From IMG/VR virus record IMGVR_UViG_3300028025_000089: DNA of 64,000 nucleotides; one strand, written 5' to 3'. Position 1 is the stretch's first letter. Every line of letters starts with the position of its first letter. The position numbers and the translations under genes were made by a program. Shown piece after piece: positions 1,946 through 30,897 of this stretch. The notes beneath the pieces are model-generated. The model saw nothing but the letters and a program-made list of their open reading frames with translations. It did no database searches and was not told where the DNA came from. Source of the stretch: a virus (lineage: Duplodnaviria; Caudoviricetes).

Positions 1946-1946
1946 A

Positions 1947-3095
1947 TCAATAAATTTTATTTTCTTCCCAATTATATTTTTTTCTTTCAAACTTATTATT
2001 TAAAACATTTTCAACAAGTTCTTTGTATTGGTCAACTAAAGTTTGATTTTCTTTAGTGTATCTTTTTATAATTTCTCTATTTTTGTTGATGTATTCTTTA
2101 TAATTGTCATTATGATTTTTAATAACATCGTCAATTCTATTTAAAGCCTCGTCTCCATTGAATCCTTCATAGTAATAACCAACGTCTTGACACATGGATC
2201 CATTATGGATAACAGGATACCCCATCCAAGCAACATCCAACCATAAATAATTTAAATTATTTTCCCATTGCCAACTAAAAACAAAATCGGTATGGTCAGG
2301 AACAATTTTGGCCGTAGGGTATCTATCCTCAACACTTACTATTTTACTTTTACCGATTTCGGTTGATAAAACAAAATCAATAAATGGTTTTGATGTTTTT
2401 ATAACATCGGCACCAAATAAATATATGTGACTCAGAGGATTTATTTTTTGATTTTTTTCTAATATTACTATCGGTAAAACAACATTTTTCATTACAGAAA
2501 TATTAGGTTCCATAACCGAACACCTTTCTATTTTTCTTGGTGCATATGTTTCTTTGTTTCTTAATTTAAACGTTTCTTCAATTACAAATGGATCCCAAAT
2601 AAATGGGACAACAGTTACTTTATCTTGACCTGTAATAAACTGATAAAAACTATAGTTGGTTTTTTCCATTTGAGGTATTGACCATACTTGATGTGGTTTT
2701 TGATCTAAATCATATCTATTTCTAAAATAAGTAGTATCTTCATTTTTTTTAAATAAAATATTTTCAGTTTTCATGAGGTAATGATTACCACATTCATATG
2801 CTACTATTTTTAGATCTTGATTTTTTATTTTCCATTTTTTGAAGTGTGTTTTTTGCACCGTAAATCCCAATTGAATAACCAAATTATATCTTATATTATA
2901 AGATTTTTCTAAACTAAAAATGTTTATTTCGTTTTCGTATTTTTTTATTTCTTCGATTGTGTTTTCATTACCACAAATTAAATCAACAATATATCCACAT
3001 TTTTTTAACACTCTCGCTAAATATATGGCGTTTTGATTAACTCCATTTGAAAATAAATTGCCTTTTATATTAATTGTTATTCCAATTCTTTTCAT
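1947..3095 (-). CDS. DUF2827-like putative glycosyltransferase, paralogue B
   Basis: RIGIT...LFSNGVNQN, MEPNISVMKN, NNLNYLWLDVAWMGYPVIHNGSMCQDVGYYY; co-linear with 743..1945. Confidence 0.7.
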   Translation of the reverse strand: MKRIGITINIKGNLFSNGVNQNAIYLARVLKKCGYIVDLICGNENTIEEIKKYENEINIFSLEKSYNIRYNLVIQLGFTVQKTHFKKWKIKNQDLKIVAYECGNHYLMKTENILFKKNEDTTYFRNRYDLDQKPHQVWSIPQMEKTNYSFYQFITGQDKVTVVPFIWDPFVIEETFKLRNKETYAPRKIERCSVMEPNISVMKNVVLPIVILEKNQKINPLSHIYLFGADVIKTSKPFIDFVLSTEIGKSKIVSVEDRYPTAKIVPDHTDFVFSWQWENNLNYLWLDVAWMGYPVIHNGSMCQDVGYYYEGFNGDEALNRIDDVIKNHNDNYKEYINKNREIIKRYTKENQTLVDQYKELVENVLNNKFERKKYNWEENKIY

Positions 3096-3098
3096 TTT

Positions 3099-3653
3099 TT
3101 ATTTTTTTATATGTTGATTTACAAACTGTAAAATAATTTGATTTTTTTCTTCATCTGTTTTTGCGTTAGCCCATAACCATAAAAAAGAAGTTTCAAGTGA
3201 TTTAAGTTCTTGTTTTTTTTCGTTCACAATTTTTTCTAAAAGAAAAATATTTGTTTCATCTAAATCTACCTCTATAGATAATTTTTGGGCTATTTTATAT
3301 AAAGTCAATAGATCATTTTTGTCATAAGCCCTTTGAGCATCAGTATACATTGTCACCAAATAAACATCTGTGGTTTTATCGGGATGACAAAATTTTGCAA
3401 TACTTCTAAAAACACTTTTTATTTTAAGTAATTCTTCGTCAGAAACCTCGTATTTTTTATCAACTTTTTTATTTTCGTTTTTAGTATCCCCAGATTGAAT
3501 TGGTATTTCTTCGCCAAGATCGTGAATTTCTTTCATGAATAATGGTCTGTAATGAGAATTAAACTCATCAACATATTCTTCTTCTGATTCTAATAGATTT
3601 AACTCCTTTATTAGAAGTCTTAACTTTAAGTTATTTAATTTTTTGTTTGACAT
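3099..3653 (-). CDS. J-domain (DnaJ-like, HPD motif) co-chaperone
   Basis: VFRSIAKFCHPDKT followed by AQRAYD, the helix II-HPD-helix III pattern, inside a helical protein. Confidence 0.7.
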   Translation of the reverse strand: MSNKKLNNLKLRLLIKELNLLESEEEYVDEFNSHYRPLFMKEIHDLGEEIPIQSGDTKNENKKVDKKYEVSDEELLKIKSVFRSIAKFCHPDKTTDVYLVTMYTDAQRAYDKNDLLTLYKIAQKLSIEVDLDETNIFLLEKIVNEKKQELKSLETSFLWLWANAKTDEEKNQIILQFVNQHIKK

Positions 3654-3741
3654 CTATTATAAATAGATTGAAATCTCTTTGAGTTTATATTTATAGATGT
3701 TAATGAATATTATTTCATATAACAGAAATATTTAAAATAAG

Positions 3742-6700
3742 ATGCCAATATATAATAGATTAACAGACCGTCAAAAAGTTTCAGCTGTAACTTTAAATGA
3801 TATATTTCACGTAGTAGTTACGGGAGACACAACACAGAGCCCTCAAGGATCATCTTATTATGCTCCTTTGAGTGATCTACAATCATTATTAAGTGGTTCT
3901 ACAGGTCCTGCAGGAACTTCAGGAACAAACGGAACAAGTGGAACAAACGGAACTTCAGGGACAAATGGTTCTAGTGGAATTAATGGAACATCAGGAACTA
4001 ACGGAAGTTCGGGGACAAATGGATCTAGCGGAACCAATGGAACATCAGGAACAAACGGAACTAATGGGACATCTGGAATTAGCGGATCTTCAGGGACTTC
4101 AGGTTCAAGTGGAAGTTCAGGTTCAAGTGGAAGTTCGGGAACTAATGGAACAAGTGGAACTAATGGTAGTTCAGGAACAAATGGATCTTCAGGGACTAAT
4201 GGGACATCAGGAACTAATGGAACTAGTGGGACAAACGGGACTAATGGAACATCGGGATCATCAGGCACGAGCGGATCAAGTGGGACATCAGGGACTAACG
4301 GAACTAGCGGAACAAACGGGTCATCAGGAACTAATGGAACTAGTGGTTCTTCAGGAGCCAATGGAACTTCAGGGACTAATGGAACTAGTGGTTCTTCAGG
4401 AACTAACGGAACTTCAGGGACTAATGGGTCTAGTGGTTCTTCAGGAACTAACGGAACAGACGGATCAAGTGGGAGTAGCGGCACTAACGGAACGTCAGGT
4501 GCTAATGGCTCAAGTGGGACTAATGGGACATCAGGAACTAACGGAACTGACGGATCAAGTGGAACAAATGGCACGTCAGGGTCTAGCGGCACAAATGGAA
4601 CTTCAGGAAGTAGCGGAACTTCTGGAACAGATGGTTTAACATGTATAAATTATACTTTATCAGCACCAGGACCGACCGACTCACAATTTACAGGAACAAC
4701 ATGCGATGGAGTTCAACAAACAGGTAATGTTGCATCTGGAACCTCATACAGTGATTGTTTTATTAGTGGTTCTGTAACTATGAATAATGGTGGTATAATA
4801 ACAAATAATGGAATTTGTGTTGGAACGTCAGGGACAAGCGGGACTAACGGAACTAATGGAACATCAGGAACGAATGGAAGTGATGGGACGAGCGGAACTA
4901 ATGGAACATCAGGAACTAATGGAACATCAGGGACGAATGGAACCGATGGTTCAAGTGGAATTAATGGTTCTTCGGGAACTAACGGGACTTCGGGAACTAA
5001 CGGAACAGATGGTACTAGTGGTCTAAATGGAACATCAGGAACGAATGGGACTTCAGGAACAGATGGTATAAGCGGAACAAATGGGACATCAGGAACTAAT
5101 GGTTCAAGTGGATCGTCAGGCACAAATGGAACAGATGGAACAAGTGGGACTAACGGGACATCAGGGTCTTCAGGAACAAATGGAACTGACGGAACTAGCG
5201 GTTCTTCAGGGACAAATGGAACTGACGGAACTAGTGGTTCTTCAGGGACAAATGGGGCCGATGGTTCAAGTGGAACAAATGGGACTTCAGGAACTAACGG
5301 GTCTAGTGGGACAAATGGAACCGATGGAACATCCGGAACTAATGGGACTGATGGTTCAAGTGGGTCTAGCGGAACTAATGGAACTAGCGGTAGTTCAGGA
5401 ACAAATGGTACAAATGGAACTGACGGAACTTCTGGTACTAATGGAACCGATGGAACATCAGGGACAAACGGGACTAGCGGTAGTTCAGGAACAAATGGAA
5501 CTGACGGAACTTCTGGTACTAATGGAACCGATGGGTCAAGTGGAACTAGCGGAACTAATGGAACATCAGGAACTAATGGAACCGATGGTTCAAGTGGAAC
5601 TAATGGTTCTTCAGGGACTAATGGAACTGACGGAACATCGGGAACGAATGGAACAAGCGGAACTGACGGAACATCAGGATCTAGCGGAACAAATGGTACA
5701 AGTGGGACTAACGGAACGTCAGGAACTAATGGGACCAATGGAACTTCAGGGACTAACGGTAGTTCAGGAACTAACGGAACCGACGGAACATCTGGAACTA
5801 ATGGAACGTCAGGATCTAGCGGAACTAATGGCACCGATGGGTCAAGTGGAACTAGCGGAACTAATGGAACATCAGGAACTAATGGAACCGATGGAACAAG
5901 CGGAACAGGATTTAACACAGTTCAAGATCCCGCATTAACAAGAGTATTAACTTCTGACGGCACTCCAAACGGAGCAATTGCTCAATCAGGTTTAACATAT
6001 AATGGAACACAATTAACGGTTACGGGTCTTACATATACTAGTGGTGTTACATCGACCTCTAAAATTACATTTCCACAAATAACAATCAATAGTAGTTATA
6101 CGGCAACTACAAATGATTACATGATAGATGTTACAGGAGGAACATTTACAGTTTCTTTACCAAGTGCTGTAGGTATTCAAGGAAGATTATTAGTTGTTAA
6201 AAATAATGGTGGGGGTGCAGTAACCGTAGATCCATATGGAAGTGAAACTATTGATGGAAAACCATTTGTTATTTTAGGCGAAACAAACTCAATACAATTA
6301 GCAAGTAATGGAAGTGAGTGGGTTGCATTAGGATATAATATATCAACCGTAAACTCTTCAACAGGTGTTTTTGAATTTACGGGACTAACAAAAGTATCAA
6401 ATACAACCTTTAATGTTGCACGTGTTAAAGGATGGATAGTTGATGATACAACTAACCCTTTAAGTCCCCAACTTTATTATGTAGATTTTAGTGGTGGAAC
6501 ATTTACCGATAATTATGTGACCACCGATTTTGAAACCTTTGTTTATTTAACAAGTGGTGGAACAATTGGTCAGCAACCAACAATCTTAACAGAACAACAA
6601 AGAAGACAAAATATCTTTTTAGGTAAAATAGGACACCCTGAAAAAACATCAATTAATTTAGTTTTTTCTCAACCTGATTTTGTCCAATCTCCATTATCAC

Positions 6701-9700
6701 AACTTCGTGATATGTTTGTTCCAATTAATTTAATTAATGGTGGGGTATATCCTTCACCTAATGGGGCAAATTTAAAAATTAATACAAGTGCGGGTTACAT
6801 ATATGGTTTGGGTATTAATTTCGCATCGAATACATTAGAACCAAATTCATTATCAATATCAGGAACTAGTCCTTGCACATTTCAATATAGAACTCAAACA
6901 GGTGGGACGGTTACAAATGTTACTGATATTGATCCACTTAACTATGATGTTGGTGGAGTTAAAACACCAATAACAGGAACTAAAACAACAAACCAAAGAA
7001 TTTTTTTATTACAAAATGGTTCGTTTAGAATTCAATACGGTCAAAACGTTTATACCACATTTGCAGAAGCGGTTGCATCATTACAAACCGAATCATTCAC
7101 GGAATTCCCTAATTTTATTAACAATGCCGTTCTTATTGGAATCTTAACGGTGACATCGACCGCAACTGATTTAACGGATCCTGCAAAGGCAAGATTTTTC
7201 TTCGCATCCAAATTTGGTGAAACTGTAGGTGCTGCGGGAGGAGTGTCAACAACAAACTTACAACAGGCATACAACAACTCATCTCAACCTGAAATCACAA
7301 CTAATTCAACATTAGGTGCTGTTTCAATTAAAAGAGGTAGTGCTTCTGACGCTGATCATGTATTTGAAATTCAAGATGGTGCTGGTGTTGATAGAATGTT
7401 AGTTAATGGTTCAGGTAGAACAACAACGACAGATTTAACAATTACAGGTCTTACAGTTAATTCAGGATTGACAAGATTTTTAGTTGTCGATACAAGTGGA
7501 AACACATATTACAGAACAAGTGGTGCCGATGGAACATCGGGAACTAACGGGACATCAGGGACTAATGGAACTAGTGGTAGTTCAGGAACTAATGGTACAA
7601 GTGGAACCAATGGAACTAGCGGTAGTTCAGGGACAAATGGAACATCCGGCACAAACGGGACTAGCGGTTCTTCAGGGACTAATGGGACAAACGGGACATC
7701 TGGAACGAATGGCACAAGTGGAACAAATGGAACTAGTGGTTCTTCAGGAACTAATGGAACAAACGGCACATCAGGGACTAATGGAACATCTGGCACAAAT
7801 GGTTCTTCGGGGACTAACGGTAGTTCAGGAACAAATGGAACATCTGGCACAAACGGGACTAGCGGTAGTTCAGGAACAAACGGGACTTCAGGAACTAATG
7901 GCACAAGTGGAACCAATGGAACTAGCGGTAGTTCAGGCACAAATGGAACATCCGGCACAAACGGGACTAGCGGTTCTTCTGGAACCAATGGAACAAGCGG
8001 TAGTTCAGGCACAAATGGAACATCAGGATCTAGCGGAACTAATGGAACATCAGGAACTAATGGAACTAGCGGTTCTTCAGGCACAAATGGAACAAGCGGA
8101 ACCAATGGGACTAGCGGTAGTTCAGGAACAAACGGAACAAATGGAACTTCAGGGTCTAGCGGAACTAATGGAACAAACGGTAGTTCAGGCACAAATGGAA
8201 CATCAGGATCTAGCGGAACTAATGGAACCAATGGAACATCGGGAACAAACGGAACTAGCGGTAGTTCAGGGACTAACGGCACATCAGGAACAAATGGGAC
8301 AAGTGGAACTTCACCAACAGTTCCAGGATCAAATGACCAAGTATTAACTTCAAACGGGTCAGGTGGAATAGTTGCAGAATCTTTATTAACATTTGATGGA
8401 ACTAAATTAAGTATGTTATACCAATCAGGTGATGAAGGTGGTGAATTATTCTTAAACAAGGCGGTTACCAATACAACATTAAGTGGTGGAATTACAATAG
8501 ATTCATACCAAAATAAATTAAGATTTTTTGAACAAGGTGGAACTGCGAGAGGTGCGTATATTGATTTAACAGCATGTGCTGCCGGTGTTGGCACAAATTT
8601 ATTAAGTGGTGGTGGAACGACTAGTGGAACAAATGGAACATCGGGAACCAATGGAACATCGGGAACTAATGGAACAAACGGAACATCCGGCACTAATGGC
8701 ACAAGTGGAACTTCAGGATCTAGCGGAACTAATGGAACATCGGGATCTAGCGGAACTAATGGAACATCGGGAACCAATGGGACTTCAGGGTCTAGCGGAA
8801 CTAACGGAACAAGCGGAACCAATGGGACTAACGGAACAAGCGGTTCTTCAGGCACTAATGGAACTAATGGAACAAGCGGAACGAATGGAACTAATGGTTC
8901 TTCAGGAACAAACGGCACATCAGGGACAAACGGGACATCTGGCACTAATGGAACAAGTGGTTCTTCAGGGACTAATGGAACTTCAGGGACTAATGGGACT
9001 AGCGGTTCTTCAGGGACAAATGGAACATCGGGAACCAATGGGACTTCAGGGTCTAGCGGAACTAATGGAACATCGGGGTCTAGCGGAACTAATGGAACGT
9101 CAGGAACTAATGGAACAAGTGGTTCTTCAGGAACTAATGGAACTTCAGGAACAAATGGAACTTCAGGAACAAATGGAACTAGTGGTTCTTCAGGGACAAA
9201 CGGGACAAGTGGTAGTTCAGGCACTAATGGAACTAATGGTACAAGTGGAACTAACGGTAGTTCTGGAACTGACGGAACAAGCGGAACAGGATTTTCATCA
9301 ATTTCACCAACTACAAATGATAACATATTAACAGCAAACGGAACTTCAAATTCTGCAGATTCAGAACCAAATTTAACATTTGACGGAATAAATAATATTC
9401 TGAATGTAACGGGTAGAACCAACATGACAGACTCAACTGCAGCACCAGCACCTTCGTTAAGTATTGTAAGTAACCCAACAGTACCGGTTAAAAGAACAAT
9501 ATCTGTTACTAATTCAGGTGACGGTATAAATACAAATGATCTATTTGGAGTTCAAACATTAGTGACAGGTGCGGTTAATAGTGCAATTGGATACTCTACT
9601 GACGTTTCAGATGCCGTAGGAGAAAATATTGGTGTTGATATTATCAATGCTTCAAGTCAGTCAGGATCAACTCAATGGGGGTCAAGAACAAACGTTGTGA

Positions 9701-10725
9701 GTGCTGGACCAGATATTAAATATGGTCACTACACTTTATTGGCCAACGGAGGTAAAGATAATTATGGTAATTATAATCAAGTTTCTGACGGGACAAATTC
9801 AAACACAGCTTACTATGGTAATGTAACGGGAATTGTAAATAAATTTGGTTACGTATTACAAGGAACAAACTCTTCAGCAAAACCATCAGGTAGTGATACA
9901 CAATATGGTGTGTCTCTTACCGTTAATGGTGCAGGTAACACATCAAGCACACAAAAATACGGAGGTTACTTTGATGTAAGTGGGGATGCTAAAGGACATA
10001 GTGGTATATATACTAAAGCCCAAAGTGCCACCGCAGCTAATTATGGTGTTGAGGCATATGCCTCGGGTATATATGGAAATAATTATGGTATTTACGCTTT
10101 AAATGATACAGTAGTTAGTGGAGGTTTAGACGTTCAACATGGTGGGTATTTTGAATCCACTGGTTTTGGTGATGTAACATCAACAATAAAATATGGTGTT
10201 TTTGCGTCGGCTTCAAACACGTCACTTGAAAACTATGGTTTATTTACTCAAGCAAATGGTGGTGATAAAAATTATTCATTATATGCTGCCGCTGGTAGAT
10301 GGACATTAAGACACGACCCGAATGTCGAATTAGGTATAAGTGACCCTGAAGGTTATGGTGACATTGTATATTTTGGTGGTGGAGGAAGTTCATTTGCAGC
10401 CGGTGATGTTGTTTATTTAAACGCAACAGGTGATTGGTCACCAACAGATGCTGGTAATTCTGGTAACTCAACAAATATGTTAGCATTAGCTCTTGGTAAC
10501 AATGTGTCAGATGGACTTTTGATTAGAGGTTACGCATATTCAAGTAGTTGGAGTTGGACCATTGGTGCACCTTTATATTTGGTTTCTGGAACTGCAGGGG
10601 CTATGACAAATACAGCACCATCAAGTGGAGGTGACGTTGTTAGAATAGTTGCTTATTCTATAGACTCGGCAACAGGAGGAAAAAAAATATATTTTAATCC
10701 TGATAATAGTTGGACAATAGCTTAA
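3742..10725 (+). CDS. Giant modular virion fibre with four Gly-X-Y (GTS/GTN/GSS/GTD) repeat blocks and intervening globular domains
   Basis: 2327-aa ORF; strict Gly every third residue over about 1100 aa; C-terminal beta-rich domains typical of phage fibre tips. Confidence 0.75.
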   Translation: MPIYNRLTDRQKVSAVTLNDIFHVVVTGDTTQSPQGSSYYAPLSDLQSLLSGSTGPAGTSGTNGTSGTNGTSGTNGSSGINGTSGTNGSSGTNGSSGTNGTSGTNGTNGTSGISGSSGTSGSSGSSGSSGSSGTNGTSGTNGSSGTNGSSGTNGTSGTNGTSGTNGTNGTSGSSGTSGSSGTSGTNGTSGTNGSSGTNGTSGSSGANGTSGTNGTSGSSGTNGTSGTNGSSGSSGTNGTDGSSGSSGTNGTSGANGSSGTNGTSGTNGTDGSSGTNGTSGSSGTNGTSGSSGTSGTDGLTCINYTLSAPGPTDSQFTGTTCDGVQQTGNVASGTSYSDCFISGSVTMNNGGIITNNGICVGTSGTSGTNGTNGTSGTNGSDGTSGTNGTSGTNGTSGTNGTDGSSGINGSSGTNGTSGTNGTDGTSGLNGTSGTNGTSGTDGISGTNGTSGTNGSSGSSGTNGTDGTSGTNGTSGSSGTNGTDGTSGSSGTNGTDGTSGSSGTNGADGSSGTNGTSGTNGSSGTNGTDGTSGTNGTDGSSGSSGTNGTSGSSGTNGTNGTDGTSGTNGTDGTSGTNGTSGSSGTNGTDGTSGTNGTDGSSGTSGTNGTSGTNGTDGSSGTNGSSGTNGTDGTSGTNGTSGTDGTSGSSGTNGTSGTNGTSGTNGTNGTSGTNGSSGTNGTDGTSGTNGTSGSSGTNGTDGSSGTSGTNGTSGTNGTDGTSGTGFNTVQDPALTRVLTSDGTPNGAIAQSGLTYNGTQLTVTGLTYTSGVTSTSKITFPQITINSSYTATTNDYMIDVTGGTFTVSLPSAVGIQGRLLVVKNNGGGAVTVDPYGSETIDGKPFVILGETNSIQLASNGSEWVALGYNISTVNSSTGVFEFTGLTKVSNTTFNVARVKGWIVDDTTNPLSPQLYYVDFSGGTFTDNYVTTDFETFVYLTSGGTIGQQPTILTEQQRRQNIFLGKIGHPEKTSINLVFSQPDFVQSPLSQLRDMFVPINLINGGVYPSPNGANLKINTSAGYIYGLGINFASNTLEPNSLSISGTSPCTFQYRTQTGGTVTNVTDIDPLNYDVGGVKTPITGTKTTNQRIFLLQNGSFRIQYGQNVYTTFAEAVASLQTESFTEFPNFINNAVLIGILTVTSTATDLTDPAKARFFFASKFGETVGAAGGVSTTNLQQAYNNSSQPEITTNSTLGAVSIKRGSASDADHVFEIQDGAGVDRMLVNGSGRTTTTDLTITGLTVNSGLTRFLVVDTSGNTYYRTSGADGTSGTNGTSGTNGTSGSSGTNGTSGTNGTSGSSGTNGTSGTNGTSGSSGTNGTNGTSGTNGTSGTNGTSGSSGTNGTNGTSGTNGTSGTNGSSGTNGSSGTNGTSGTNGTSGSSGTNGTSGTNGTSGTNGTSGSSGTNGTSGTNGTSGSSGTNGTSGSSGTNGTSGSSGTNGTSGTNGTSGSSGTNGTSGTNGTSGSSGTNGTNGTSGSSGTNGTNGSSGTNGTSGSSGTNGTNGTSGTNGTSGSSGTNGTSGTNGTSGTSPTVPGSNDQVLTSNGSGGIVAESLLTFDGTKLSMLYQSGDEGGELFLNKAVTNTTLSGGITIDSYQNKLRFFEQGGTARGAYIDLTACAAGVGTNLLSGGGTTSGTNGTSGTNGTSGTNGTNGTSGTNGTSGTSGSSGTNGTSGSSGTNGTSGTNGTSGSSGTNGTSGTNGTNGTSGSSGTNGTNGTSGTNGTNGSSGTNGTSGTNGTSGTNGTSGSSGTNGTSGTNGTSGSSGTNGTSGTNGTSGSSGTNGTSGSSGTNGTSGTNGTSGSSGTNGTSGTNGTSGTNGTSGSSGTNGTSGSSGTNGTNGTSGTNGSSGTDGTSGTGFSSISPTTNDNILTANGTSNSADSEPNLTFDGINNILNVTGRTNMTDSTAAPAPSLSIVSNPTVPVKRTISVTNSGDGINTNDLFGVQTLVTGAVNSAIGYSTDVSDAVGENIGVDIINASSQSGSTQWGSRTNVVSAGPDIKYGHYTLLANGGKDNYGNYNQVSDGTNSNTAYYGNVTGIVNKFGYVLQGTNSSAKPSGSDTQYGVSLTVNGAGNTSSTQKYGGYFDVSGDAKGHSGIYTKAQSATAANYGVEAYASGIYGNNYGIYALNDTVVSGGLDVQHGGYFESTGFGDVTSTIKYGVFASASNTSLENYGLFTQANGGDKNYSLYAAAGRWTLRHDPNVELGISDPEGYGDIVYFGGGGSSFAAGDVVYLNATGDWSPTDAGNSGNSTNMLALALGNNVSDGLLIRGYAYSSSWSWTIGAPLYLVSGTAGAMTNTAPSSGGDVVRIVAYSIDSATGGKKIYFNPDNSWTIA
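3901..4635 (+). repeat. Gly-X-Y repeat block 1
   Basis: 9-nt units such as ggaactaat, ggaacatca, ggttcaagt; boundaries approximate. Confidence 0.9.
4821..5910 (+). repeat. Gly-X-Y repeat block 2 (rich in GTD)
   Basis: Same units plus frequent GTD; contains an exact duplication of about 60 nt (about 5530-5588 and 5836-5894). Confidence 0.9.
7521..8310 (+). repeat. Gly-X-Y repeat block 3
   Basis: Almost pure GTN/GTS/GSS; boundaries approximate. Confidence 0.9.
8611..9290 (+). repeat. Gly-X-Y repeat block 4
   Basis: Almost pure GTN/GTS/GSS; boundaries approximate. Confidence 0.9.
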
Positions 10726-10727
10726 AT

Positions 10728-13658
10728 TTAAAACTGTCTATTATCAATGTAGATAATAACTTCATTGTAGTATTCTATAAAATGTTCGTTCCATAAATCC
10801 CACTTTATGTTTACACCATCAATAGAATACACTTCAAAGTTATTAAACATTTGTAAAATATTATCTCTAAACCATCTGAACTTACATTCATGAAAGTTTT
10901 CATCGTTACGTAAATGAAACTCGGTAACAATTTTTGGGATTGTTTTTAAAAATTCTATATTAGATGGTTGAAACACATCGTATTCTCCCCCTTCACAATC
11001 ACACTTAAGAAAATCAATTTTATCAATTCCATTCTCATCTAAAAATTCTCTGAATGTAAAAGTAGGAACACTTTCACTAATTCCATCCCATGTAATGTCA
11101 ATTCTTTTTTTGTCAGTAATTGCACCCTGAATTATTTTGACATTATTTTTTCCAACGTTCCTTTTTAAAACTTCTATTTGATATGATAATGGCTCAACAA
11201 CAAAACATTGTTTTGGATTGTTCGGTAAAATTGAATACGTGAATGGTCCTAATGATGCACCTAAATCAACAACAATATCACCCTCTTCTACGGTAAAACA
11301 TCTATCATATATGTTATGATCTTCAATTTCTTTAATTGCGGCCTCACTATACCAATTAGTTTTTCCTCCCCAATCAAAACCATCTAATTTATTTTTTTTC
11401 TCAATAACTTGTTCTTTATTCATAATCTTATTTATTTCTTTTATCACCATGTCTGATGTTATTTTTTTGGAACATTCAAATTGACGATCAGTTCCTTTAT
11501 GAAGTGGACACCAATTCCAATCACCAGCGTTTAATCTATCATTATTAAAACATCCATGACATACGTCTTCATTTATAACTCTATATGTGTCTAACTTTGT
11601 TTCTGCAAATTTTTCACTAAACCCTGAAATTAAAATGACGGGTAATTCACATGCCCAAGCCAACCAAGATAAGCCTGAACCTAACCCAATGAAAAACTCA
11701 CAAGTTGATAAATCATCAATTACTTCTTGTAAATTACCACCTTTATATATTGTAACTCCTTTTGGGTAAAAATTATTCATATACCCATCACCTTCTTTAG
11801 AATAGATCATACATTCATAACCTAATGCATCAAGATGATCTATAACGGACTGCCACCCATCAGGATTGTTCCAATACTTTGCCTGTGCGGTTGAATGAAA
11901 TCCAATACCAACTTTTTTCTTTTTTGGGGTGTTTGGTAATTTAAGTTTTGGTCTAATCTCTTTATATTCTAATCCCAAAATATCCGTTGCTGTTTTTTGT
12001 AATGGCTGTCTTTTAAAATCAAAAGGATGTTTATTAAAATCAAATTCCCCATTTTCGTTGTAATACCAACCAAGTTGATATTGAGCGATTATATTATATA
12101 CCGTTTCACCTGGATCAACAAATTCAATATTTGGGTATTCATTTTTAAATAATGAATTCATAAATGTGGATACGATCAACTCGCAATTGTGTTTTTTTCT
12201 AAACTCCTCACAATATGGAATCCAAGCCAACGTGTCACCAAGAGATTTTGAACCGAAAGAAATATAAACTCTTTTGTTTTCAAGATTCAAAACATTTGAA
12301 TAAATAACATTTTTGTTTTCTTTTATTTCGGTTTTCCATTTTGTGTAATATTGTCTATTAACTTTAACCCAAGAATTGATTTTAATATTATTGTTATAAA
12401 TAATATTTTCTTGTTCATCAAAAAAGGTAATCTCAAAGTTTGAATCGTCATCCCCTGTTATTTCAATAAAAGGATTTACAACAAAATGATTATTTATCTT
12501 GCATGATTTTGTTATTGGATTATTTATTGTTTTTGTTACATTTTTAACTTCTTTATAAAAATCTAATAACTCTTTTTTAAAATCCCTTTCATTATTTATT
12601 TCATAAGTTTCATTTGAATTTAATAACTCAAGTAAGGTATTTTTTATGTCGTTGTAATCGTTTGATTTGATTGGTGTAATATACTTGTCAAACATTCCAA
12701 CATATTGTGGTAGATTTCTTGTCATTATTTTCATTCCATAGTTAATAGATTCTCTAATAACCAAAGGATTACATTCCCAAGTTGAGTTAAACATTAAAAC
12801 ATCACAGGCTTTCATAAATGTATCAACATCATCTCTTTCACCCCACACCGTAACATTCTTTGGTAAATCATCCATTATTGGTTTCCAATAATTTTCAAAG
12901 TTTGACGCTTGGTTTCCAATAAAATGAAAATGTAAATCAGGGTGAGTATCTTGTAATAATCTTGCAACTTCAATACCCTCCTTTTGATTTTTACCTTCAG
13001 TCCAAAGACCGACATTTAAAATGTGTGTTTTTGTAATTGGGATGTTTAATTTTTCTCTTTCTGTTATTTTTTTTAATAATGGAACTCTATGTGATTGATC
13101 AACTATACTAAGGTCATTTAGTATATCACTTACCTTATCTTCCAATGGATATTCCCAAACTTTCTTTGGTGTATCAAGTTTGTTAAATTGACTTGTCAAA
13201 TGATAAGGGGTGACTAAAGAATAATAGTCAGGGTGTAGTTTTTTATTTGTATTTCCATTAAACCAAATGTTATGACAAGTCTCAACAATTCTCCACGTTC
13301 TATCATTATCATATAATTGGTTAAGTAGATCTAAAGGAATTTTATTAAAACTTTCAAACCCTTCCGGTATTTCTTCAATATGGACAATATCAATTTCATT
13401 TTCCTTTATAATATCAATTAGTTGATATTTTTTTTCAGGTTCTGTAAACCAACCTAATGTGAAAAAATGATTTGAATCAAGTAAGTCAATTATCTTATTT
13501 CTTTGAACTATGTATGTGTCACTAAACTGCGAATATTCTACAAGAAAAACTTCAATTTCATTTTTATATTCCAATAAAGATTCAATTCTCTTTAATACGA
13601 ATTGTGGCATCCCTCCTGTTGATAAATGGGGAACAACATACATTAATTTTATTTTCAT
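10728..13658 (-). CDS. Three-domain enzyme: GT4-like glycosyltransferase + Aah/TibC-like (autotransporter O-heptosyltransferase) domain + FkbM-type methyltransferase
   Basis: N-term VVPHLSTGGMPQ...NVGLWTEGKNQ...FNSTWECNPLVIRE (GT-B); middle KSLGDTLAWIPY, QPLQKTATDILGL, FFIGLGSGLSWLAWA and C-x2-C-x13-C-x11-C (VCHGCF...WCPLHKGTDRQFEC); C-term VVDLGASLGPF, VVEP, LKCDCEGGEY. Confidence 0.8.
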   Translation of the reverse strand: MKIKLMYVVPHLSTGGMPQFVLKRIESLLEYKNEIEVFLVEYSQFSDTYIVQRNKIIDLLDSNHFFTLGWFTEPEKKYQLIDIIKENEIDIVHIEEIPEGFESFNKIPLDLLNQLYDNDRTWRIVETCHNIWFNGNTNKKLHPDYYSLVTPYHLTSQFNKLDTPKKVWEYPLEDKVSDILNDLSIVDQSHRVPLLKKITEREKLNIPITKTHILNVGLWTEGKNQKEGIEVARLLQDTHPDLHFHFIGNQASNFENYWKPIMDDLPKNVTVWGERDDVDTFMKACDVLMFNSTWECNPLVIRESINYGMKIMTRNLPQYVGMFDKYITPIKSNDYNDIKNTLLELLNSNETYEINNERDFKKELLDFYKEVKNVTKTINNPITKSCKINNHFVVNPFIEITGDDDSNFEITFFDEQENIIYNNNIKINSWVKVNRQYYTKWKTEIKENKNVIYSNVLNLENKRVYISFGSKSLGDTLAWIPYCEEFRKKHNCELIVSTFMNSLFKNEYPNIEFVDPGETVYNIIAQYQLGWYYNENGEFDFNKHPFDFKRQPLQKTATDILGLEYKEIRPKLKLPNTPKKKKVGIGFHSTAQAKYWNNPDGWQSVIDHLDALGYECMIYSKEGDGYMNNFYPKGVTIYKGGNLQEVIDDLSTCEFFIGLGSGLSWLAWACELPVILISGFSEKFAETKLDTYRVINEDVCHGCFNNDRLNAGDWNWCPLHKGTDRQFECSKKITSDMVIKEINKIMNKEQVIEKKNKLDGFDWGGKTNWYSEAAIKEIEDHNIYDRCFTVEEGDIVVDLGASLGPFTYSILPNNPKQCFVVEPLSYQIEVLKRNVGKNNVKIIQGAITDKKRIDITWDGISESVPTFTFREFLDENGIDKIDFLKCDCEGGEYDVFQPSNIEFLKTIPKIVTEFHLRNDENFHECKFRWFRDNILQMFNNFEVYSIDGVNIKWDLWNEHFIEYYNEVIIYIDNRQF

Positions 13659-13711
13659 CTAAAAAAAAATAATTTATTCATATTATTTGTGTAGTATCTT
13701 ACTATTAGTTT

Positions 13712-14638
13712 GTGAAAGAAATTTGTTTAGACATATCAGATTGTAGAGCGTTAGGTGATACTTTATGTGCAACCCCAACGATTAGAAAACTATATCACTC
13801 TTATGGAAAAAAAATTTCTGTAATCACACATTATCCTGAATTGTTTTATAACAATCCATATGTTTTAGAAATTTTTGATAATTCAAAAAATAAAGAAGAA
13901 TTATCAGATCATGAAATTTTTTCAACTTTCGACATTTCATACAAAGAAAATGGTGTTTGTAATAAACATAACACAATTGATATTAGACAATTTCACGCAA
14001 TTAATCTTGGGTTTATGTTAACCAAAAATGAGATGACCTTAGATTATTTTCCAAATGATGTGTCATTACCTGATCTACCAAAAAAATATGTTTTAATTCA
14101 TCCCGTTCAAAATTGGGAATCAAGAACTTGGCCAATAAAAAATTGGCAAATGTTAACACAGTTGTTAAATGAAAAAGGGATTCATGTTATTTCTGTTGGT
14201 AAAGATTCTTCTGAATTGGGAGGGTCTAATGTTGATAAACCTGTTTTTGATTTTCCAATTAAGTTGGGATATAACTTAATGAATCAAACTTCAATAGATC
14301 AAACTTGGCATTTAATAAATAATAGTTCTTGTTTTGTGACTATGGATTCGGGTCTTTTACATTTAGCGGGAACAACAGATGCCGAAATAATACAATTAGG
14401 AAGTTCAATCGATCCTGAGTTTAGATCACCATATAGAAATGGTAGTCAAGAATATAAGTATCATTATGTTAGTGGTGGTTGTGGTTTACATTGTGCCTCA
14501 GATATGAAATATGGTGTTCGTGAGTGGGGATCAATACAAGGTATACCTTCTTTAGTAAAATGTTTAGAAAGAAAAGAAACTTTTGAATGTCACCCAAATA
14601 TCTTATCGGTATACAATAAAATTTTAGAAATAGTTTAA
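13712..14638 (+). CDS. GT9-like (heptosyltransferase family) glycosyltransferase with Cys cluster
   Basis: ALGDTLCATP, LIHP...WESRTWPIKNW, FVTMDSGLLHLAG, and C-x3-C-x22-C-x8-C near the C-terminus; GTG start. Confidence 0.8.
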   Translation: MKEICLDISDCRALGDTLCATPTIRKLYHSYGKKISVITHYPELFYNNPYVLEIFDNSKNKEELSDHEIFSTFDISYKENGVCNKHNTIDIRQFHAINLGFMLTKNEMTLDYFPNDVSLPDLPKKYVLIHPVQNWESRTWPIKNWQMLTQLLNEKGIHVISVGKDSSELGGSNVDKPVFDFPIKLGYNLMNQTSIDQTWHLINNSSCFVTMDSGLLHLAGTTDAEIIQLGSSIDPEFRSPYRNGSQEYKYHYVSGGCGLHCASDMKYGVREWGSIQGIPSLVKCLERKETFECHPNILSVYNKILEIV

Positions 14639-14655
14639 TTTGGTATTTATGTTAT

Positions 14656-14955
14656 ATGCCAAACATAGTTCAAATTAATTCTTTATCGGGAACGGCACCT
14701 TTTGATTTATATGTGTGTGATCAAACAATTTCATATTGTTTTTTTGTTGCGAGCATTTCAGGATCACCATATACATTTGATGTTCCACCCCCATTAGATT
14801 CAACAACACCAATTATATTAAAAGTTATTGATGCAAATAACTGTGAGGTAATATATCTATTATCTTGTGGTGAAATTTATATTAAAGAATTTGAAGGGTT
14901 TGAAGTGTTCTTATTTCAGGATGCAAATGTATTTATATTTGAAGGTCCACCTTAA
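14656..14955 (+). CDS. Small Cys-containing beta-rich protein, probable virion accessory
   Basis: 99 aa, beta-strand pattern, preceded by TATTTAT at 14644; function is inference. Confidence 0.4.
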   Translation: MPNIVQINSLSGTAPFDLYVCDQTISYCFFVASISGSPYTFDVPPPLDSTTPIILKVIDANNCEVIYLLSCGEIYIKEFEGFEVFLFQDANVFIFEGPP

Positions 14956-14992
14956 CAATTTACTATTGAGATGTCTATAATATTTTTGTTTT

Positions 14993-16237
14993 ATGAAAAT
15001 ATTTGTTCAAATCGCGTCGTATCGCGACCCTCAGCTTATACCAACAATAGAAAATATGTTGGAGAATGCCAAAAGACCAAAAAACATTGTAATTGGTGTG
15101 GCAAGACAATTTCATCCTGAAGATGGTTTTGATGATCTATCCAAGTATGAAAAAGATAAAAGATTTAGAATCCTAAATATTCCTTACACAGAATCAAAAG
15201 GAGTTTGTTGGGCAAGACATCAAGTTCAACAACTATATGGTGGTGAAGAATATACCCTTCAGATCGACTCTCACATGAGATTTGAAAAGAATTGGGATGA
15301 CGAAATGATTAAAATGATTAAACAACTTCAAAAGAAAGGTCATAAGAAACCTTTATTAACGGGGTATGTTTCATCTTTTGATCCTGAAAACGATCCTGCA
15401 GGTAGAGTTACTGAACCATGGAGAATGGTTTTTGATAGATTCACTCCTGAAGGTGTTGTATTCTTTTTACCTGAAACTATTCCAGGTTGGAAAGAAATGA
15501 AAGAACCAATTCCGGCAAGATTCTATTCTGCACATTATTGTTTTACGTTAGGTGAATTTTCAACCGAAGTTCAACATGATCCTGAATTTTATTTTCACGG
15601 AGAAGAAATTTCAATTTCAGTAAGAGCATATACTCACGGTTATGATTTATTCCACCCACATAAAGTTCTTGTATGGCACGAATATACAAGAAAAGGTAGA
15701 ACAAAACAATGGGACGATGATAAAGAATGGCATTTAAGAAATACCGCATGTCATATTAAAAACAGACAACTTTTAGGAGTTGATGGTGAAACGTTTAATG
15801 GTGATTACTCTGAATGGTTTGGAACTGAAAGAACCGTTCAAGATTACGAAAAATATGCTGGTATTCGTTTTGAAACAAGAGGGATTCAACAAGAAACAAT
15901 AGATAAAAAATATCCACCAAACACATATAATTTTGAAACCGAACAAGATTGGAAAAATTCATTCTCAACAATTTTCAAACATTGTATTGATATAAACTAT
16001 GTTAGTGTTCCTGAAAAAGATTATGAATATTGGGTAGTTGCTTTCCACGATGAAAATGACGAAACATTATATAGAAGAGATGCCGACATTAATGAAATCA
16101 ACGGATTCTTCAGAGACCCTGATGGGTATTGTAAAGTGTGGAGAGAATTCAACACAACTAAAAAACCTAAGTATTGGGTTGTATGGCCTTACTCAACTTC
16201 TAAAGGATGGTGTGATCGATTAACAGGAAATTTATAA
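14993..16237 (+). CDS. GT60/GlcNAc-family (Skp1 Gnt1-like, polypeptide GlcNAc-transferase-like) glycosyltransferase
   Basis: IFVQIASYRD, SKGVCWAR, LQIDSHMRFEKNWD, FHGEEIS, RAYTHGYDLFHP are hallmarks of this GT-A family. Confidence 0.8.
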   Translation: MKIFVQIASYRDPQLIPTIENMLENAKRPKNIVIGVARQFHPEDGFDDLSKYEKDKRFRILNIPYTESKGVCWARHQVQQLYGGEEYTLQIDSHMRFEKNWDDEMIKMIKQLQKKGHKKPLLTGYVSSFDPENDPAGRVTEPWRMVFDRFTPEGVVFFLPETIPGWKEMKEPIPARFYSAHYCFTLGEFSTEVQHDPEFYFHGEEISISVRAYTHGYDLFHPHKVLVWHEYTRKGRTKQWDDDKEWHLRNTACHIKNRQLLGVDGETFNGDYSEWFGTERTVQDYEKYAGIRFETRGIQQETIDKKYPPNTYNFETEQDWKNSFSTIFKHCIDINYVSVPEKDYEYWVVAFHDENDETLYRRDADINEINGFFRDPDGYCKVWREFNTTKKPKYWVVWPYSTSKGWCDRLTGNL

Positions 16238-16241
16238 TAAC

Positions 16242-17819
16242 ATGGCAAATATTTCGTTTTACGGTTCCCACAATGCCGCTGTAGTTGTGGAGGATCAAGG
16301 AAAAATTATTACAGTAATAGAGGTAGAAAGATTTTTAACTCAAAAAAATGCAGGTTATTCACAATATTTAGTATCATATTCAAGACCTTTTTTATTAAAA
16401 CATATTATACAATATATTAAAGATGAGTTTGGTATTTCTGAATTTGATAAATGTTATTACTTAAATTCTGATACGGTAGAAGGATCTGAAAAAGTTCATT
16501 ATCAAGAATTAATACCAGCAAAAGAATACATCAATTCATTACACCATTTAAGTCATGCTGCTTGCGGATTCTATCAAACGGATTATAATGAAGCGTTAAT
16601 CATTTCTTTTGATGGTGGAGGTAATGACGGGTTCTTCAATGTTTATCACGCTGAAGATAGAAATAACATAAATGTAGTTGAGAAATTCAATATTGATTTA
16701 GGATTTCCATATATGTCATTTGGTGATTACTTGGGTGACATTACAAAAGAACCGGCACTTAATATTGGTAATTTAGTTTATGCAGGAAAAATAATGGGTC
16801 TTTGTTCGTATGGAAATGTGAACGAAGAATGGTTACCACATTTTGAGGAATACTATAGAAGAAAACCAGATGGTTTAAATTACTTACAATACCTACAAGA
16901 ACTTAGTGAACAAACAGGTTTATCATTTGATATGGAAAATCGAATGTCAGGTCAGTTAGGGTGGGATGTTGCTAAGACATCACAAATTGCATTTGAGAAT
17001 GTTTTTATGGAATTGGCTCAACCGTTTTTAGATCAATTCCCTAATATTCCTTTGATTCTTGTTGGTGGATGTGCGTTAAATATCTTGTTAAACACAAAAT
17101 TACACCAAGAACTTAATAGACCTGTGTTTGTTCCACCAAATCCTAATGATTGTGGAATTGCAACAGGTATGATGTTAAATCACATTAAACCTGAAAAGGC
17201 AATTGATATTACTTATGCGGGTATTGGTATTTTAGACAAACACACATTAATGTCTCATGTAGAAGAACGACACGCTCTTCCTCTTAAAACTGAAATGTTA
17301 GTTGATGATTTAGTAGATGGTAGAATTGTTGGGGTTGTCAGAGGTAATGCCGAACATGGACCAAGAGCTTTAGGAAATAGAAGTATTATTTGTAATCCAG
17401 CCTACGAAAACATGAAAGACATTTTAAATGCAAAAGTAAAAAATAGAGAGTGGTATAGACCATTTGCGCCTGTTTGTAAATTAGAAGATGTATCTAAATA
17501 TTTTAATTTCGAAGGTGAGAGTAAATGGATGGGATTTTGCCCAACGGTAAAAGAAGAATGGAGAGAAAAATTAGTTTCAATTACACATGTTGACGGGACT
17601 GCGAGAGTTCAAACAGTTACAGAAGAACAAAATCCTTGGTTATATAATTTATTAACCGAATTTGAGAAAAAATCAGGAATTGGTGTTTTATTAAACACAT
17701 CTTTCAATGTAAACGGAAAACCAATTCTTTCTCGATATAGTGATGCGATTTGGGTTTATGATAAAACAGAAATGGATTGTCTTTTATTAGGTGATTATTA
17801 TTTTAGAAAAAGAGCATGA
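16242..17819 (+). CDS. O-carbamoyltransferase, NodU/CmcH/TobZ family
   Basis: SHNAAV, EVERF, HHLSHAACGF, DGGG, GGCALN, EHGPRALGNRSI, KNREWYRPFAP, HVDGTARVQTV, LLNTSFNVNGKPI. Confidence 0.92.
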   Translation: MANISFYGSHNAAVVVEDQGKIITVIEVERFLTQKNAGYSQYLVSYSRPFLLKHIIQYIKDEFGISEFDKCYYLNSDTVEGSEKVHYQELIPAKEYINSLHHLSHAACGFYQTDYNEALIISFDGGGNDGFFNVYHAEDRNNINVVEKFNIDLGFPYMSFGDYLGDITKEPALNIGNLVYAGKIMGLCSYGNVNEEWLPHFEEYYRRKPDGLNYLQYLQELSEQTGLSFDMENRMSGQLGWDVAKTSQIAFENVFMELAQPFLDQFPNIPLILVGGCALNILLNTKLHQELNRPVFVPPNPNDCGIATGMMLNHIKPEKAIDITYAGIGILDKHTLMSHVEERHALPLKTEMLVDDLVDGRIVGVVRGNAEHGPRALGNRSIICNPAYENMKDILNAKVKNREWYRPFAPVCKLEDVSKYFNFEGESKWMGFCPTVKEEWREKLVSITHVDGTARVQTVTEEQNPWLYNLLTEFEKKSGIGVLLNTSFNVNGKPILSRYSDAIWVYDKTEMDCLLLGDYYFRKRA

Positions 17820-30896: not shown

Positions 30897-30897
30897 T

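Follow-up and report, generated by a model that had tools for sequence, protein, structure and literature searches.

A TibC/Aah-like glycosyltransferase domain fused to GT4 and FkbM modules in a jumbo myovirus probably acts on the adjacent collagen-like tail fibre

The 64-kb stretch of DNA analyzed here (hereafter, the window) belongs to a jumbo myovirus found in freshwater and subsurface metagenomes, and family scans detected in it phage genes for the tail sheath, tube, baseplate hub, DNA polymerase and helicases. An unbroken 976-aa reading frame at positions 10728-13658 on the minus strand, taken from the ORF list and its translation, encodes a fusion protein (P0001) in which family matches and an AlphaFold2 model (mean pLDDT 90.9) place an N-terminal GT4 glycosyltransferase, a middle domain resembling the bacterial enzymes TibC and Aah (BAHT domain) and a C-terminal FkbM methyltransferase. 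This plan, proposed in the initial annotation, was borne out by sequence, key residues and fold alike, and all three domains are real, with matches far beyond chance. The stop codon of the fusion gene lies 2 nt from that of the convergent gene at 3742-10725 (plus strand), which encodes a 2327-aa collagen-like tail fibre (P0002). Promoter and terminator scans of positions 3000-15000 yielded sites no more numerous than in shuffled sequence.

The GT4 domain (residues 1-372; 12543-13658, minus strand), of the retaining type, was recognized by the Pfam models PF00534 (Glycos_transf_1; E 2.3e-14, 53.7 bits, cut-off 26.4, residues 198-353) and PF13692. It combines this score above the family cut-off with the E-x7-E motif (E295-x7-E303) and the GT-B fold, and its Foldseek matches comprise BshA, PimB', MshA, WaaG and PimA. 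At the other end of the protein, a SAM-dependent methyltransferase of the FkbM family (residues 766-976 by the limits of the model; 10731-11363, minus strand) scored above the cut-offs of both family models (TIGR01444, 54.1 bits against 37.7; PF05050, 42.2 bits against 22.7) and possesses the SAM-binding motif I, VVDLGASLG, at residues 796-804.

In the AlphaFold2 model the BAHT domain spans residues 386-748, in agreement with the middle domain previously placed at nucleotides 11420-12500 (residues 387-747). It comprises a beta-barrel (residues 386-456; 12291-12503, minus strand) followed by the catalytic domain (residues 463-748; 11415-12272, minus strand). The closest characterized enzymes are the BAHT autotransporter heptosyltransferases TibC of enterotoxigenic Escherichia coli (ETEC) H10407 and Aah of E. 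coli 2787 (PDB 4RAP, 4RB4; PMC4358343); the background given for them in the initial annotation, namely ADP-heptose as donor, O-linkage to Ser and an iron site of four Cys, agrees with that source. The initial annotation had named a TIGRFAM comparison with the TibC family as a check, and the domain scored 290.4 bits on TIGR04414 (hepto_Aah_TibC; E 1.9e-86, residues 407-745, profile positions 28-374 of 374), well above the curated equivalog cut-off of 200 bits. Sequence comparison matched it to the TibC structure 4RAP with an E-value of 4.2e-63, the identity to TibC and Aah is 34-40% across about 350 residues, and Foldseek superimposed the model on TibC with TM scores of 0.83-0.87 at 34% identity (380-399 alignment columns over TibC chains of 381-390 residues). 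Grouping with the lipopolysaccharide (LPS) heptosyltransferases, the outcome that would have spoken against the assignment, was not seen: TIGR02193 gave 14.3 bits against a cut-off of 185.3, and TIGR02195 and TIGR02201 were not listed at E-values up to 1. WaaC, WaaF and WaaQ belong to the same GT9 superfamily, whose model PF01075 the phage domain matches with 22.9 bits, barely above the cut-off, but these enzymes, which act on the lipid A-core, have neither the beta-barrel nor the Cys4 finger, and the phage domain scores far below membership in their families. Within the GT9-fold enzymes, the middle module genuinely belongs to the TibC/Aah (BAHT) branch.

The protomer architecture of TibC, including a flattened N-terminal barrel that packs on the catalytic domain, has been described (PMC4358343), and the phage domain shares its plan: the barrel, corresponding to TibC residues 1-97 and modelled and matched by Foldseek with seven strands mostly above pLDDT 90, the two-lobed GT-B-like catalytic domain and the Cys4 finger. 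Both motifs noted initially are in place, LGDTLAW at residues 473-479 and GLGSGLSWLAWA at 658-669, and the C-x2-C-x13-C-x11-C spacing is exact. The four Cys (700, 703, 717 and 729; 11472-11561, minus strand) align with TibC Cys 339, 342, 358 and 370, and across a sample of 204 non-identical homologous BAHT domains each is retained in 97-98%; iron binding by this finger-like motif is putative. In the same sample D475, within LGDTLAW, is invariant (204/204) and corresponds to the catalytic base D110 of TibC, which was located via superposition with WaaC (PMC4358343). T590 and K594, conserved in 94% and 99% of the domains, are the counterparts of TibC Thr-226 and Lys-230 that hold the beta-phosphate, and W665, present in 100%, is that of Trp-305 that contacts the heptose O4 (PMC4358343). 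The thumb of TibC, a beta-hairpin in an enzyme that forms a ring-shaped dodecamer (PMC4358343), has a counterpart in the phage domain, but the segment is 3 residues shorter, has Y-M in place of F265-V266 at its tip and does not take a hairpin shape in the model.

Two specificity positions differ from those of the characterized enzymes. G660 occupies the stereoselectivity position where TibC has Pro-300 and AAH has Ser-294, and V646 replaces Arg-286 of TibC, which contacts adenine N1 and is the basis of ADP specificity; the R286A substitution abolishes or strongly reduces TibC activity (PMC4358343). In the phage-type family this column is variable (V 65, R 49, T 34, L 23, others), whereas all three bacterial autotransporter-linked enzymes possess Arg. 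The caution expressed earlier, that the donor may differ from heptose if the host lacks ADP-heptose, was justified: in addition to the lost Arg, the heptose pathway is absent from the closest near-complete relatives (no GmhA or RfaE homologues in G002, G021 and G031), although it is present in a lineage with a 57%-identical fusion. The latter is represented by G005, a complete 373-kb phage that encodes GmhA-like (188 bits), RfaE-I-like (301 bits) and RfaE-II-like (107 bits) proteins and whose enzyme likewise has Val and Gly at these positions. Because G005 pairs this Val with an ADP-heptose-type pathway, we rejected the replacement of Arg-286 as proof of a non-ADP donor. ADP-heptose would be the leading candidate.

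The neighbouring fibre, noticed initially as a Ser-rich convergent gene product, is indeed rich in Ser and Thr, which make up 35.7% of the protein, 831 residues in total. The Pfam Collagen model matched it in 19 stretches (E 3.5e-147), and triplet statistics delineated four G-X-Y tracts (residues 52-300, 361-723, 1261-1524 and 1629-1850) with 366 triplets altogether. The triplets are proline-free and follow the pattern G-T/S-S/N/D, with Thr (77%) or Ser (20%) at X and Ser (52%), Asn (39%) or Asp (7%) at Y. The central domain (residues 724-1260) matches PHROG tail fibre families (3e-23 and 3e-15). A homologue search with the C-terminal region (residues 1851-2327) returned nothing, and its AlphaFold2 model, built from a 7-row alignment, was unusable (mean pLDDT 41.6); one idea is that the YG repeats in this region would form a beta-solenoid mimicking an autotransporter passenger. 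Like tibC and aah, the phage gene adjoins a gene for a large, repetitive, Ser-rich surface protein; unlike them, it is phage-encoded, embeds the BAHT domain between GT4 and FkbM in a 976-aa chain and has a collagen-like tail fibre as neighbour in place of a beta-helical passenger, family scans of the 64-kb window having detected no autotransporter.

Given that a TibC/Aah-type fusion adjoins a collagen-like fibre, the phage probably glycosylates its own fibre. On balance, we consider it probable, by no means certain, that P0001 is a cytoplasmic three-module glycan-building enzyme of the jumbo myovirus whose most likely acceptor is this Ser/Thr-rich protein. The BAHT module would attach a sugar to the fibre, as characterized members transfer heptose from ADP-heptose to Ser, the GT4 module most likely would extend it by a second sugar, and O-methylation of the glycan would fall to the FkbM module; this order of action is our conjecture. 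The modification would take place in the host cytoplasm, ahead of virion assembly, with the adjacent 2327-aa fibre as the acceptor above all others. A point against the fibre is that the acceptors known for BAHT enzymes are beta-helical passengers of autotransporters rather than collagen-like repeats (PMC4358343).

Comparison with related phages speaks to this question. An exhaustive homologue search recovered 775 clusters (50% identity) at E ≤ 1e-30; the best 150 of the 775 all scored above 305 bits, compared with about 217 bits for TibC, and most of these relatives are multi-domain proteins. Homologues turned up in 79 viral loci of IMG/VR, and uncultured phages commonly carry the fusion and its variants. 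In the loci L001 and L002, with enzymes 72% and 96% identical to P0001, a collagen-like fibre gene is likewise downstream and convergent, and collagen-like ORFs occur within 10 kb of the enzyme in most IMG/VR homologues of at least 54% identity and in some at 35-48%. In a clade of 47% identity, giant Pro/Thr mucin-like neighbours replace the collagen-like ones, and the distant homologues L053-L058 and L060-L061 are without a Ser/Thr-rich neighbour. In a paired control of 15 phage records, each enzyme locus being compared with a control region of the same record, collagen-like tracts were present at 9/15 enzyme loci and 0/15 control regions and Ser+Thr-rich stretches at 11/15 and 2/15, respectively. 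Synteny among related phages is in part shared descent. Fibre glycosylation is favoured because the enzyme stays beside collagen- or mucin-like fibres in diverged phages and because BAHT domains are recurrently fused to glycan-tailoring domains: nearly all fusion partners build or tailor glycans (GT4, FkbM, other O-methyltransferases, GT2, PIG-L and one PLOD collagen-GT). A 'Rosetta stone' search found no collagen-like or Ser/Thr-rich segment joined to the enzyme in any of about 280 homologues.

The mucin-like neighbours of the 47% clade suggest loose acceptor requirements, and the enzyme might instead glycosylate other phage or host proteins, for example, other Ser/Thr/Pro-rich virion proteins, its adjacency to the fibre having no one-to-one meaning. 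A precedent is virion glycosylation in mycobacteriophages (Freeman et al. 2023, cited in PMC12619734), whose glycosyltransferases are described there as decorating the phages' own structural proteins, capsid and tail-tube C-termini, in the host cytoplasm; that system involves other enzyme families, and the account given in PMC12619734 mentions no BAHT-type domain, collagen-like acceptor or multi-enzyme fusion. We regard an acceptor other than the fibre as rather unlikely, considering that the 2-nt convergent junction, with the same layout in L001, L002 and many IMG/VR loci, points to the fibre first and that, with 831 Ser and Thr, this protein far exceeds any other nearby source of acceptor residues.

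The fusion gene and the fibre gene are surrounded by further genes for glycan enzymes. Divergent from the fusion gene is a gene for a 308-aa GT9-fold glycosyltransferase (13712-14638, plus strand; PF01075, E 6e-17) that gives weak, sub-threshold matches to the LPS heptosyltransferase I, II and III models and is retained beside the fusion in L001, L002, L018, L023 and L042-L052. It is followed on the plus strand by a GT60-type 'GlcNAc' glycosyltransferase (14993-16237; PF11397, E 8.2e-71; phrog_24687, E 1.2e-168), a NodU/NolO-type carbamoyltransferase (16242-17819; PF16861, PF02543, phrog_1601; 165 bits on the NodU model, under its cut-off) and a 792-aa protein combining an FkbM methyltransferase with an HtrL/YibB-like part (18713-21091; PF05050, E 3e-14; PF09612, E 1.7e-11; also TIGR01444 and TIGR02192). 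Upstream of the fibre gene, two tandem DUF2827 proteins of 415 and 382 aa are encoded on the minus strand (743-3095; PF10933, E 3e-95 and 8.9e-74). Sequence searches of the PDB found no relatives of the DUF2827 proteins or of the PF11397 enzyme. A scan of genome contigs yielded matches in only two MAG contigs, one of 'Ca. Muiribacterium' and one of a Bacteroidetes MAG, evidence too weak for naming a host.

Glycosyltransferases encoded among tail fibre genes of aquatic myophages are usually thought to remodel the host surface (PMC7029224). Accordingly, the enzyme and its island might modify LPS core, O-chain or capsule, for instance, blocking superinfection, and neighbour the fibre only via a shared variable host-recognition region; both GT4 and GT9 count among the classic families of LPS and polysaccharide enzymes, the 308-aa GT9 protein weakly resembles LPS heptosyltransferases, and the co-location with fibre genes, which is all that the paired control shows, is predicted here too. 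Nevertheless, the preference of the BAHT domain for the model of the protein-acting TibC/Aah enzymes over that of LPS heptosyltransferase I makes such remodelling unlikely, as does its retention of the beta-barrel and Cys4 finger, which in TibC serve protein-substrate contact and oligomer building (PMC4358343). Moreover, Ser and Thr consistently account for a large part of the neighbouring proteins across diverged lineages, and the presence of a GT60-type enzyme in the same island likewise favours the fibre as acceptor.

Phage glycosyltransferases and NodU-type carbamoyltransferases are also known from DNA hypermodification pathways, and a carbamoyltransferase gene lies 2.6 kb from the fusion gene. 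The island would then decorate a modified base with sugar, carbamoyl and methyl groups, with the BAHT-like domain recruited to a nucleic-acid acceptor. This we deem highly improbable: no characterized BAHT or GT9 enzyme is known to act on DNA, family scans of the window detected no hydroxymethylase-type gene, and the fusion partners in the family are sugar O-methyltransferases and polysaccharide-type glycosyltransferases.

If the fibre is the acceptor, as we favour, decoration might bear on its folding. Collagen-like surface fibres that carry O-linked sugars added by dedicated enzymes are known from Bacillus anthracis, where Thr in the GPT repeats of BclA is O-glycosylated by a rhamnose/anthrose pathway, and from Mimivirus, whose collagen is glycosylated via the PLOD-like L230 (hydroxylysine glucosylation). 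Their repeats include Pro or Lys, unlike the 366 proline-free triplets here, and the enzymes are unrelated. One BAHT-family fusion protein bears a PLOD-type GT domain, recalling L230. A tentative idea, which we hold possible if doubtful, is that the phage makes a 'glyco-collagen': the proline-free triple helix would form or stay stable only via dense O-glycosylation of Thr and Ser, the iron-finger BAHT enzyme would thread the chain processively to build a methylated disaccharide within a single polypeptide, and the enterobacterial autotransporter heptosyltransferases would be a small offshoot of a mostly phage-borne, multi-domain family that glycosylates fibres. In a tree, the three bacterial autotransporter-linked enzymes form a clade separate from the phage sequences, and bacterial BAHT members adjoin AIDA-I genes.

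To our knowledge, work on BAHT enzymes has treated protein O-heptosylation solely as a virulence property of autotransporter adhesins in proteobacteria, and literature searches returned no paper on BAHT enzymes of phages. An enzyme type known so far only from bacterial adhesins probably sugar-coats a phage's own fibre, and the family is far larger than its proteobacterial autotransporter members. The locus offers a concrete, testable candidate for tail-fibre decoration in large aquatic phages, with a bearing on host recognition, fibre stability and folding of the proline-free collagen-like repeat, and natural one-chain enzymes that 'attach, extend, methylate' would be of interest for glycoengineering. 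Annotation pipelines label such proteins 'autotransporter strand-loop-strand O-heptosyltransferase', a misleading name in a phage.

The only relative found in a cultured phage is WWT39291.1 (1226 aa) of the Microcystis phage Mel-JY01, on which literature searches returned no paper. Its BAHT domain is 47% identical to that of P0001 and scores 317 bits on TIGR04414, a GT4 domain is present in the same polypeptide, and its gene adjoins that of a 'structural protein', as the fusion gene adjoins the fibre gene; it differs in domain order, with GT4 first and BAHT last, and the host is a cyanobacterium. The protein is deposited as 'methyltransferase FkbM', a name from which the glycosyltransferase domains are missing.

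Translation of positions 10728-13658 on the minus strand gave an intact open reading frame of 976 residues, and the three domains that the initial annotation had assigned to it, of the GT4, TibC/Aah and FkbM types, were all detected with Pfam and NCBIfam models. The GT4 domain is matched by Pfam Glycos_transf_1 (residues 198-353, E 2.3e-14), the FkbM domain by TIGR01444 (54.1 bits; cut-off 37.7) and also by PF05050, and the middle domain by the NCBIfam equivalog TIGR04414, the model of the bacterial autotransporter heptosyltransferase (BAHT) family of TibC and Aah, over residues 407-745 with 290.4 bits (E 1.9e-86; curated cut-off 200 bits). The motifs noticed earlier lie where they had been placed: LGDTLAW at residues 473-479, GLGSGLSWLAWA at 658-669 and the C-x2-C-x13-C-x11-C pattern at Cys 700, 703, 717 and 729. 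Grouping with LPS heptosyltransferases, which the initial annotation had named as the finding that would speak against its assignment, was not borne out because the sole strong sequence match among solved structures is TibC of ETEC (4RAP, E 4.2e-63; residues 415-746 of the fusion aligned with TibC 49-387) and the LPS heptosyltransferase I model yields just 14 bits.

The AlphaFold2 model of the fusion (mean pLDDT 90.9; 38-row alignment) consists of a GT-B GT4 domain (residues 1-372), a beta-barrel (386-456), the BAHT catalytic domain (463-748), a low-confidence linker (749-765) and the FkbM domain (766-976). The top Foldseek structure is TibC (TibC-normalised TM 0.83-0.87, 380-399 columns, 34% identity), followed, for the N-terminal domain, by the retaining GT4 enzymes BshA, PimB', MshA, WaaG and PimA. 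The defining residues were taken from the TibC structure paper (PMC4358343) and their counterparts from a HMMER alignment. The catalytic base Asp-110 corresponds to D475, Thr-226 and Lys-230, which hold the beta-phosphate, to T590 and K594, Trp-305, which contacts heptose O4, to W665, and the iron-binding Cys 339/342/358/370 to C700/703/717/729. Arg-286, which contacts adenine N1 and whose replacement in the R286A mutant removes most or all activity, is aligned with V646, and Pro-300 (Ser-294 of AAH), the stereoselectivity position, with G660. Compared with TibC, the thumb segment is short by 3 residues, and the model does not show it as a hairpin. The flanking modules carry an E-x7-E motif (295-303, GT4) and an intact motif I (796-804, FkbM). 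By its sequence, its key residues and its modelled fold, the middle domain is a BAHT family member. Unlike the described members of the family, this enzyme is encoded by a phage, differs at the Arg-286 position, has fused partner domains, lacks any autotransporter and adjoins a collagen-like rather than a beta-helical protein. Literature searches did not bring up any publication on BAHT enzymes of phages; a 2025 study of large aquatic 'moraphages' with predicted Bacteroidota hosts lists glycosyltransferases among the core genes and leaves the BAHT family unmentioned (PMC12619734).

The fusion is widespread. A word-indexed search of metagenomes retrieved the full fusion in at least 120 clusters, with 70-96% identity and contigs of up to 259 kb among the matches listed, and many of the listed clusters carry the automatic name 'autotransporter strand-loop-strand O-heptosyltransferase'. 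IMG/VR contains 79 distinct loci (37-83% identity, contigs up to 373 kb). With only the BAHT domain as query, an exhaustive search returned 1487 cluster representatives at E <= 1e-3 and 775 at E <= 1e-30; the best 150 of the 1487 all score above 305 bits, against 217 for TibC. In 82 of these 150, most of which are far longer than the BAHT domain, neither a GT4 nor an FkbM-like partner was detected, and the others include GT4-BAHT (24), MT-BAHT (11), BAHT-MT (8) and GT4-BAHT-MT (4) architectures as well as tandem BAHT doublets and triplets, such as the 924-aa protein P0133 with domains at 21-296, 314-622 and 620-922. A Pfam scan of 48 long members identified GT4 (32), FkbM (10), Methyltransf_24 (9) and CmcI-type rhamnosyl O-methyltransferase (4) partners, together with GT2, PIG-L deacetylase and, in one of the 48, a PLOD-type collagen glycosyltransferase domain (PF25342, E 5e-45). 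All these partners are glycan-building or tailoring modules, which fits the earlier idea of an assembly line. PHROGs contain no family covering the BAHT domain, and the only cultured-phage relative found is Microcystis phage Mel-JY01, whose 1226-aa protein combines GT4 and BAHT domains (TIGR04414, 317 bits). The deposited name of this protein, 'methyltransferase FkbM' (L090, PP395634.1, 4750-8430), conceals both domains; a 639-aa 'cytidylyltransferase like protein' without an NCBIfam match is encoded 3 kb downstream. In a FastTree phylogeny of 176 domains, three bacterial enzymes adjoining AIDA-I-type genes form one clade (100% local support) and the window's domain falls within an IMG/VR clade.

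Candidate genes for donor synthesis were found in one lineage. A 57%-identical fusion occurs in the complete 373-kb genome G005, which has direct terminal repeats, and in the near-copies G016-G018. These genomes also encode a GmhA-like gene (188 bits, cut-off 209; G005:C1 118794-119264, L082) as well as RfaE-domain-I-like (301 bits, cut-off 345; 39139-40074, L084) and RfaE-domain-II-like (107 bits; 317253-317645, L083) genes, scattered over the genome. In these genomes there is no GmhB and no clear HldD. At both specificity positions the BAHT domain of this lineage shares the Val and Gly of the window's enzyme; hence, ADP-heptose is compatible with a Val at position 286. GmhA- and RfaE-like genes are absent from G002, the closest near-complete relative (93% complete), and from two further ones, G021 and G031, so that heptose is the leading but only putative donor for the window's enzyme.

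The candidate acceptor is the 2327-residue collagen-like tail fibre encoded at 3742-10725 on the plus strand. As stated in the initial annotation, the two genes are convergent; their stop codons were found to be 2 nt apart. The fibre matches Pfam Collagen (E 3.5e-147) and contains 366 G-X-Y triplets in four tracts, with Thr (77%) or Ser (20%) at X, Ser (52%), Asn (39%) or Asp (7%) at Y and Pro in a single triplet of the 366. Because GTN triplets precede G-T/S, N-G-S/T sequons are abundant (149 of 173 N-x-S/T sequons), and a cytoplasmic N-glycosyltransferase would therefore also find an ideal substrate in the repeat. The central domain resembles PHROG tail fibre families (3e-23); the C-terminal region produced an unusable AlphaFold2 model (pLDDT 41.6) and zero matches in a homologue search. 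Long ORFs overlapping the fibre gene on both strands (3858-9425), for instance 7509-9425 (-, 638 aa) and 4713-5918 (-, 401 aa), were rejected as shadow frames of the G-X-Y repeat; such frames are present in the related locus L001 too.

L001 (enzyme 72% identical, 259-kb contig) and L002 (96%) both retain the convergent arrangement with a collagen-like fibre. A collagen-like ORF lies within 10 kb of the enzyme in most IMG/VR loci with at least 54% identity and also in some 35-48% loci with other architectures (L059, L063, L071/L074, L076/L077). When one 17-kb region far from the enzyme gene was taken as a control in each of 15 phage records, which represent related rather than independent lineages, collagen-like tracts were found in 9 of the 15 enzyme loci and none of the control regions, and 100-residue stretches with at least 45% Ser+Thr in 11 and 2, respectively. 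The paired control shows that the enzyme is co-located with fibre genes, which is not proof of catalysis; no enzyme-substrate fusions were found among about 280 homologues. In the 47% clade (L042-L052), giant Pro/Thr mucin-like proteins adjoin the enzyme instead of collagen-like ones, and in L018 Ser/Thr/Gly-rich paralogues lie nearby; a rival reading is that the acceptors are other Ser/Thr/Pro-rich virion proteins. A small Cys-containing protein is encoded between the fibre and enzyme genes in L001 (12923-13741, -; 272 aa with three internal repeats) and L002 (12411-12752, -; 113 aa) and is missing from the window.

The two genes belong to a glycan island that also includes two DUF2827 genes (743-3095), a 308-aa GT9-fold gene divergent to the fusion (13712-14638), a PF11397/GT60-type transferase (14993-16237), a NodU-type carbamoyltransferase (16242-17819) and an FkbM plus HtrL-like protein (18713-21091). 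Between the GT9 and PF11397 genes, a 99-aa ORF without a family match (14656-14955, +) recurs in L002 (8184-8483) with unchanged position and length. For glycosyltransferase genes among the tail fibre genes of aquatic myophages, the customary interpretation is remodelling of host LPS or capsule (PMC7029224). That explanation is weakened here by the BAHT domain, which has the beta-barrel, the Cys4 finger and the scores (290 versus 14 bits) of the protein-acting family, and by the neighbouring PF11397 enzyme. DNA hypermodification is a further rival. On balance, we lean slightly towards glycosylation of the fibre: in the cytoplasm of the infected cell, the BAHT module would O-glycosylate Ser/Thr of the freshly made fibre, the GT4 module would lengthen the glycan and the FkbM module would methylate it, with the remaining island enzymes possibly adding further decoration.

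The window derives from a contractile-tailed phage encoding a tail sheath, tube and baseplate hub, along with a DNA polymerase, helicases including a DnaB-like one, SSB and a UvsX-like recombinase; no tRNA genes were detected within it. CheckV estimates for related IMG/VR records (22% completeness for a 63-kb fragment, 93% for a 272-kb record) imply a genome near 270-300 kb. Metagenomes of nine studies, sampled from the subsurface and from freshwater, contain DNA near-identical to the window, and the host clues amount to two MAG matches, both weak. Promoter and terminator scans of positions 3000-15000 returned sites at chance level. Downstream of the baseplate hub, two giant plus-strand ORFs (42656-47737, 1693 aa; 48052-55125, 2357 aa) have essentially zero PHROG matches. 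The 1111-aa tail sheath protein (34996-38331, +) matches sheath proteins only over residues 857-1109, leaving about 850 N-terminal residues outside the match. Finally, residues 171-359 of a 720-aa ORF (28752-30914, -) make up a complete superoxide dismutase of the Fe/Mn type (PF00081, E 1e-20; PF02777, E 8e-41), whereas the roughly 170 residues before it and 360 after it have no family match; this is an unusual superoxide dismutase fusion for a phage.
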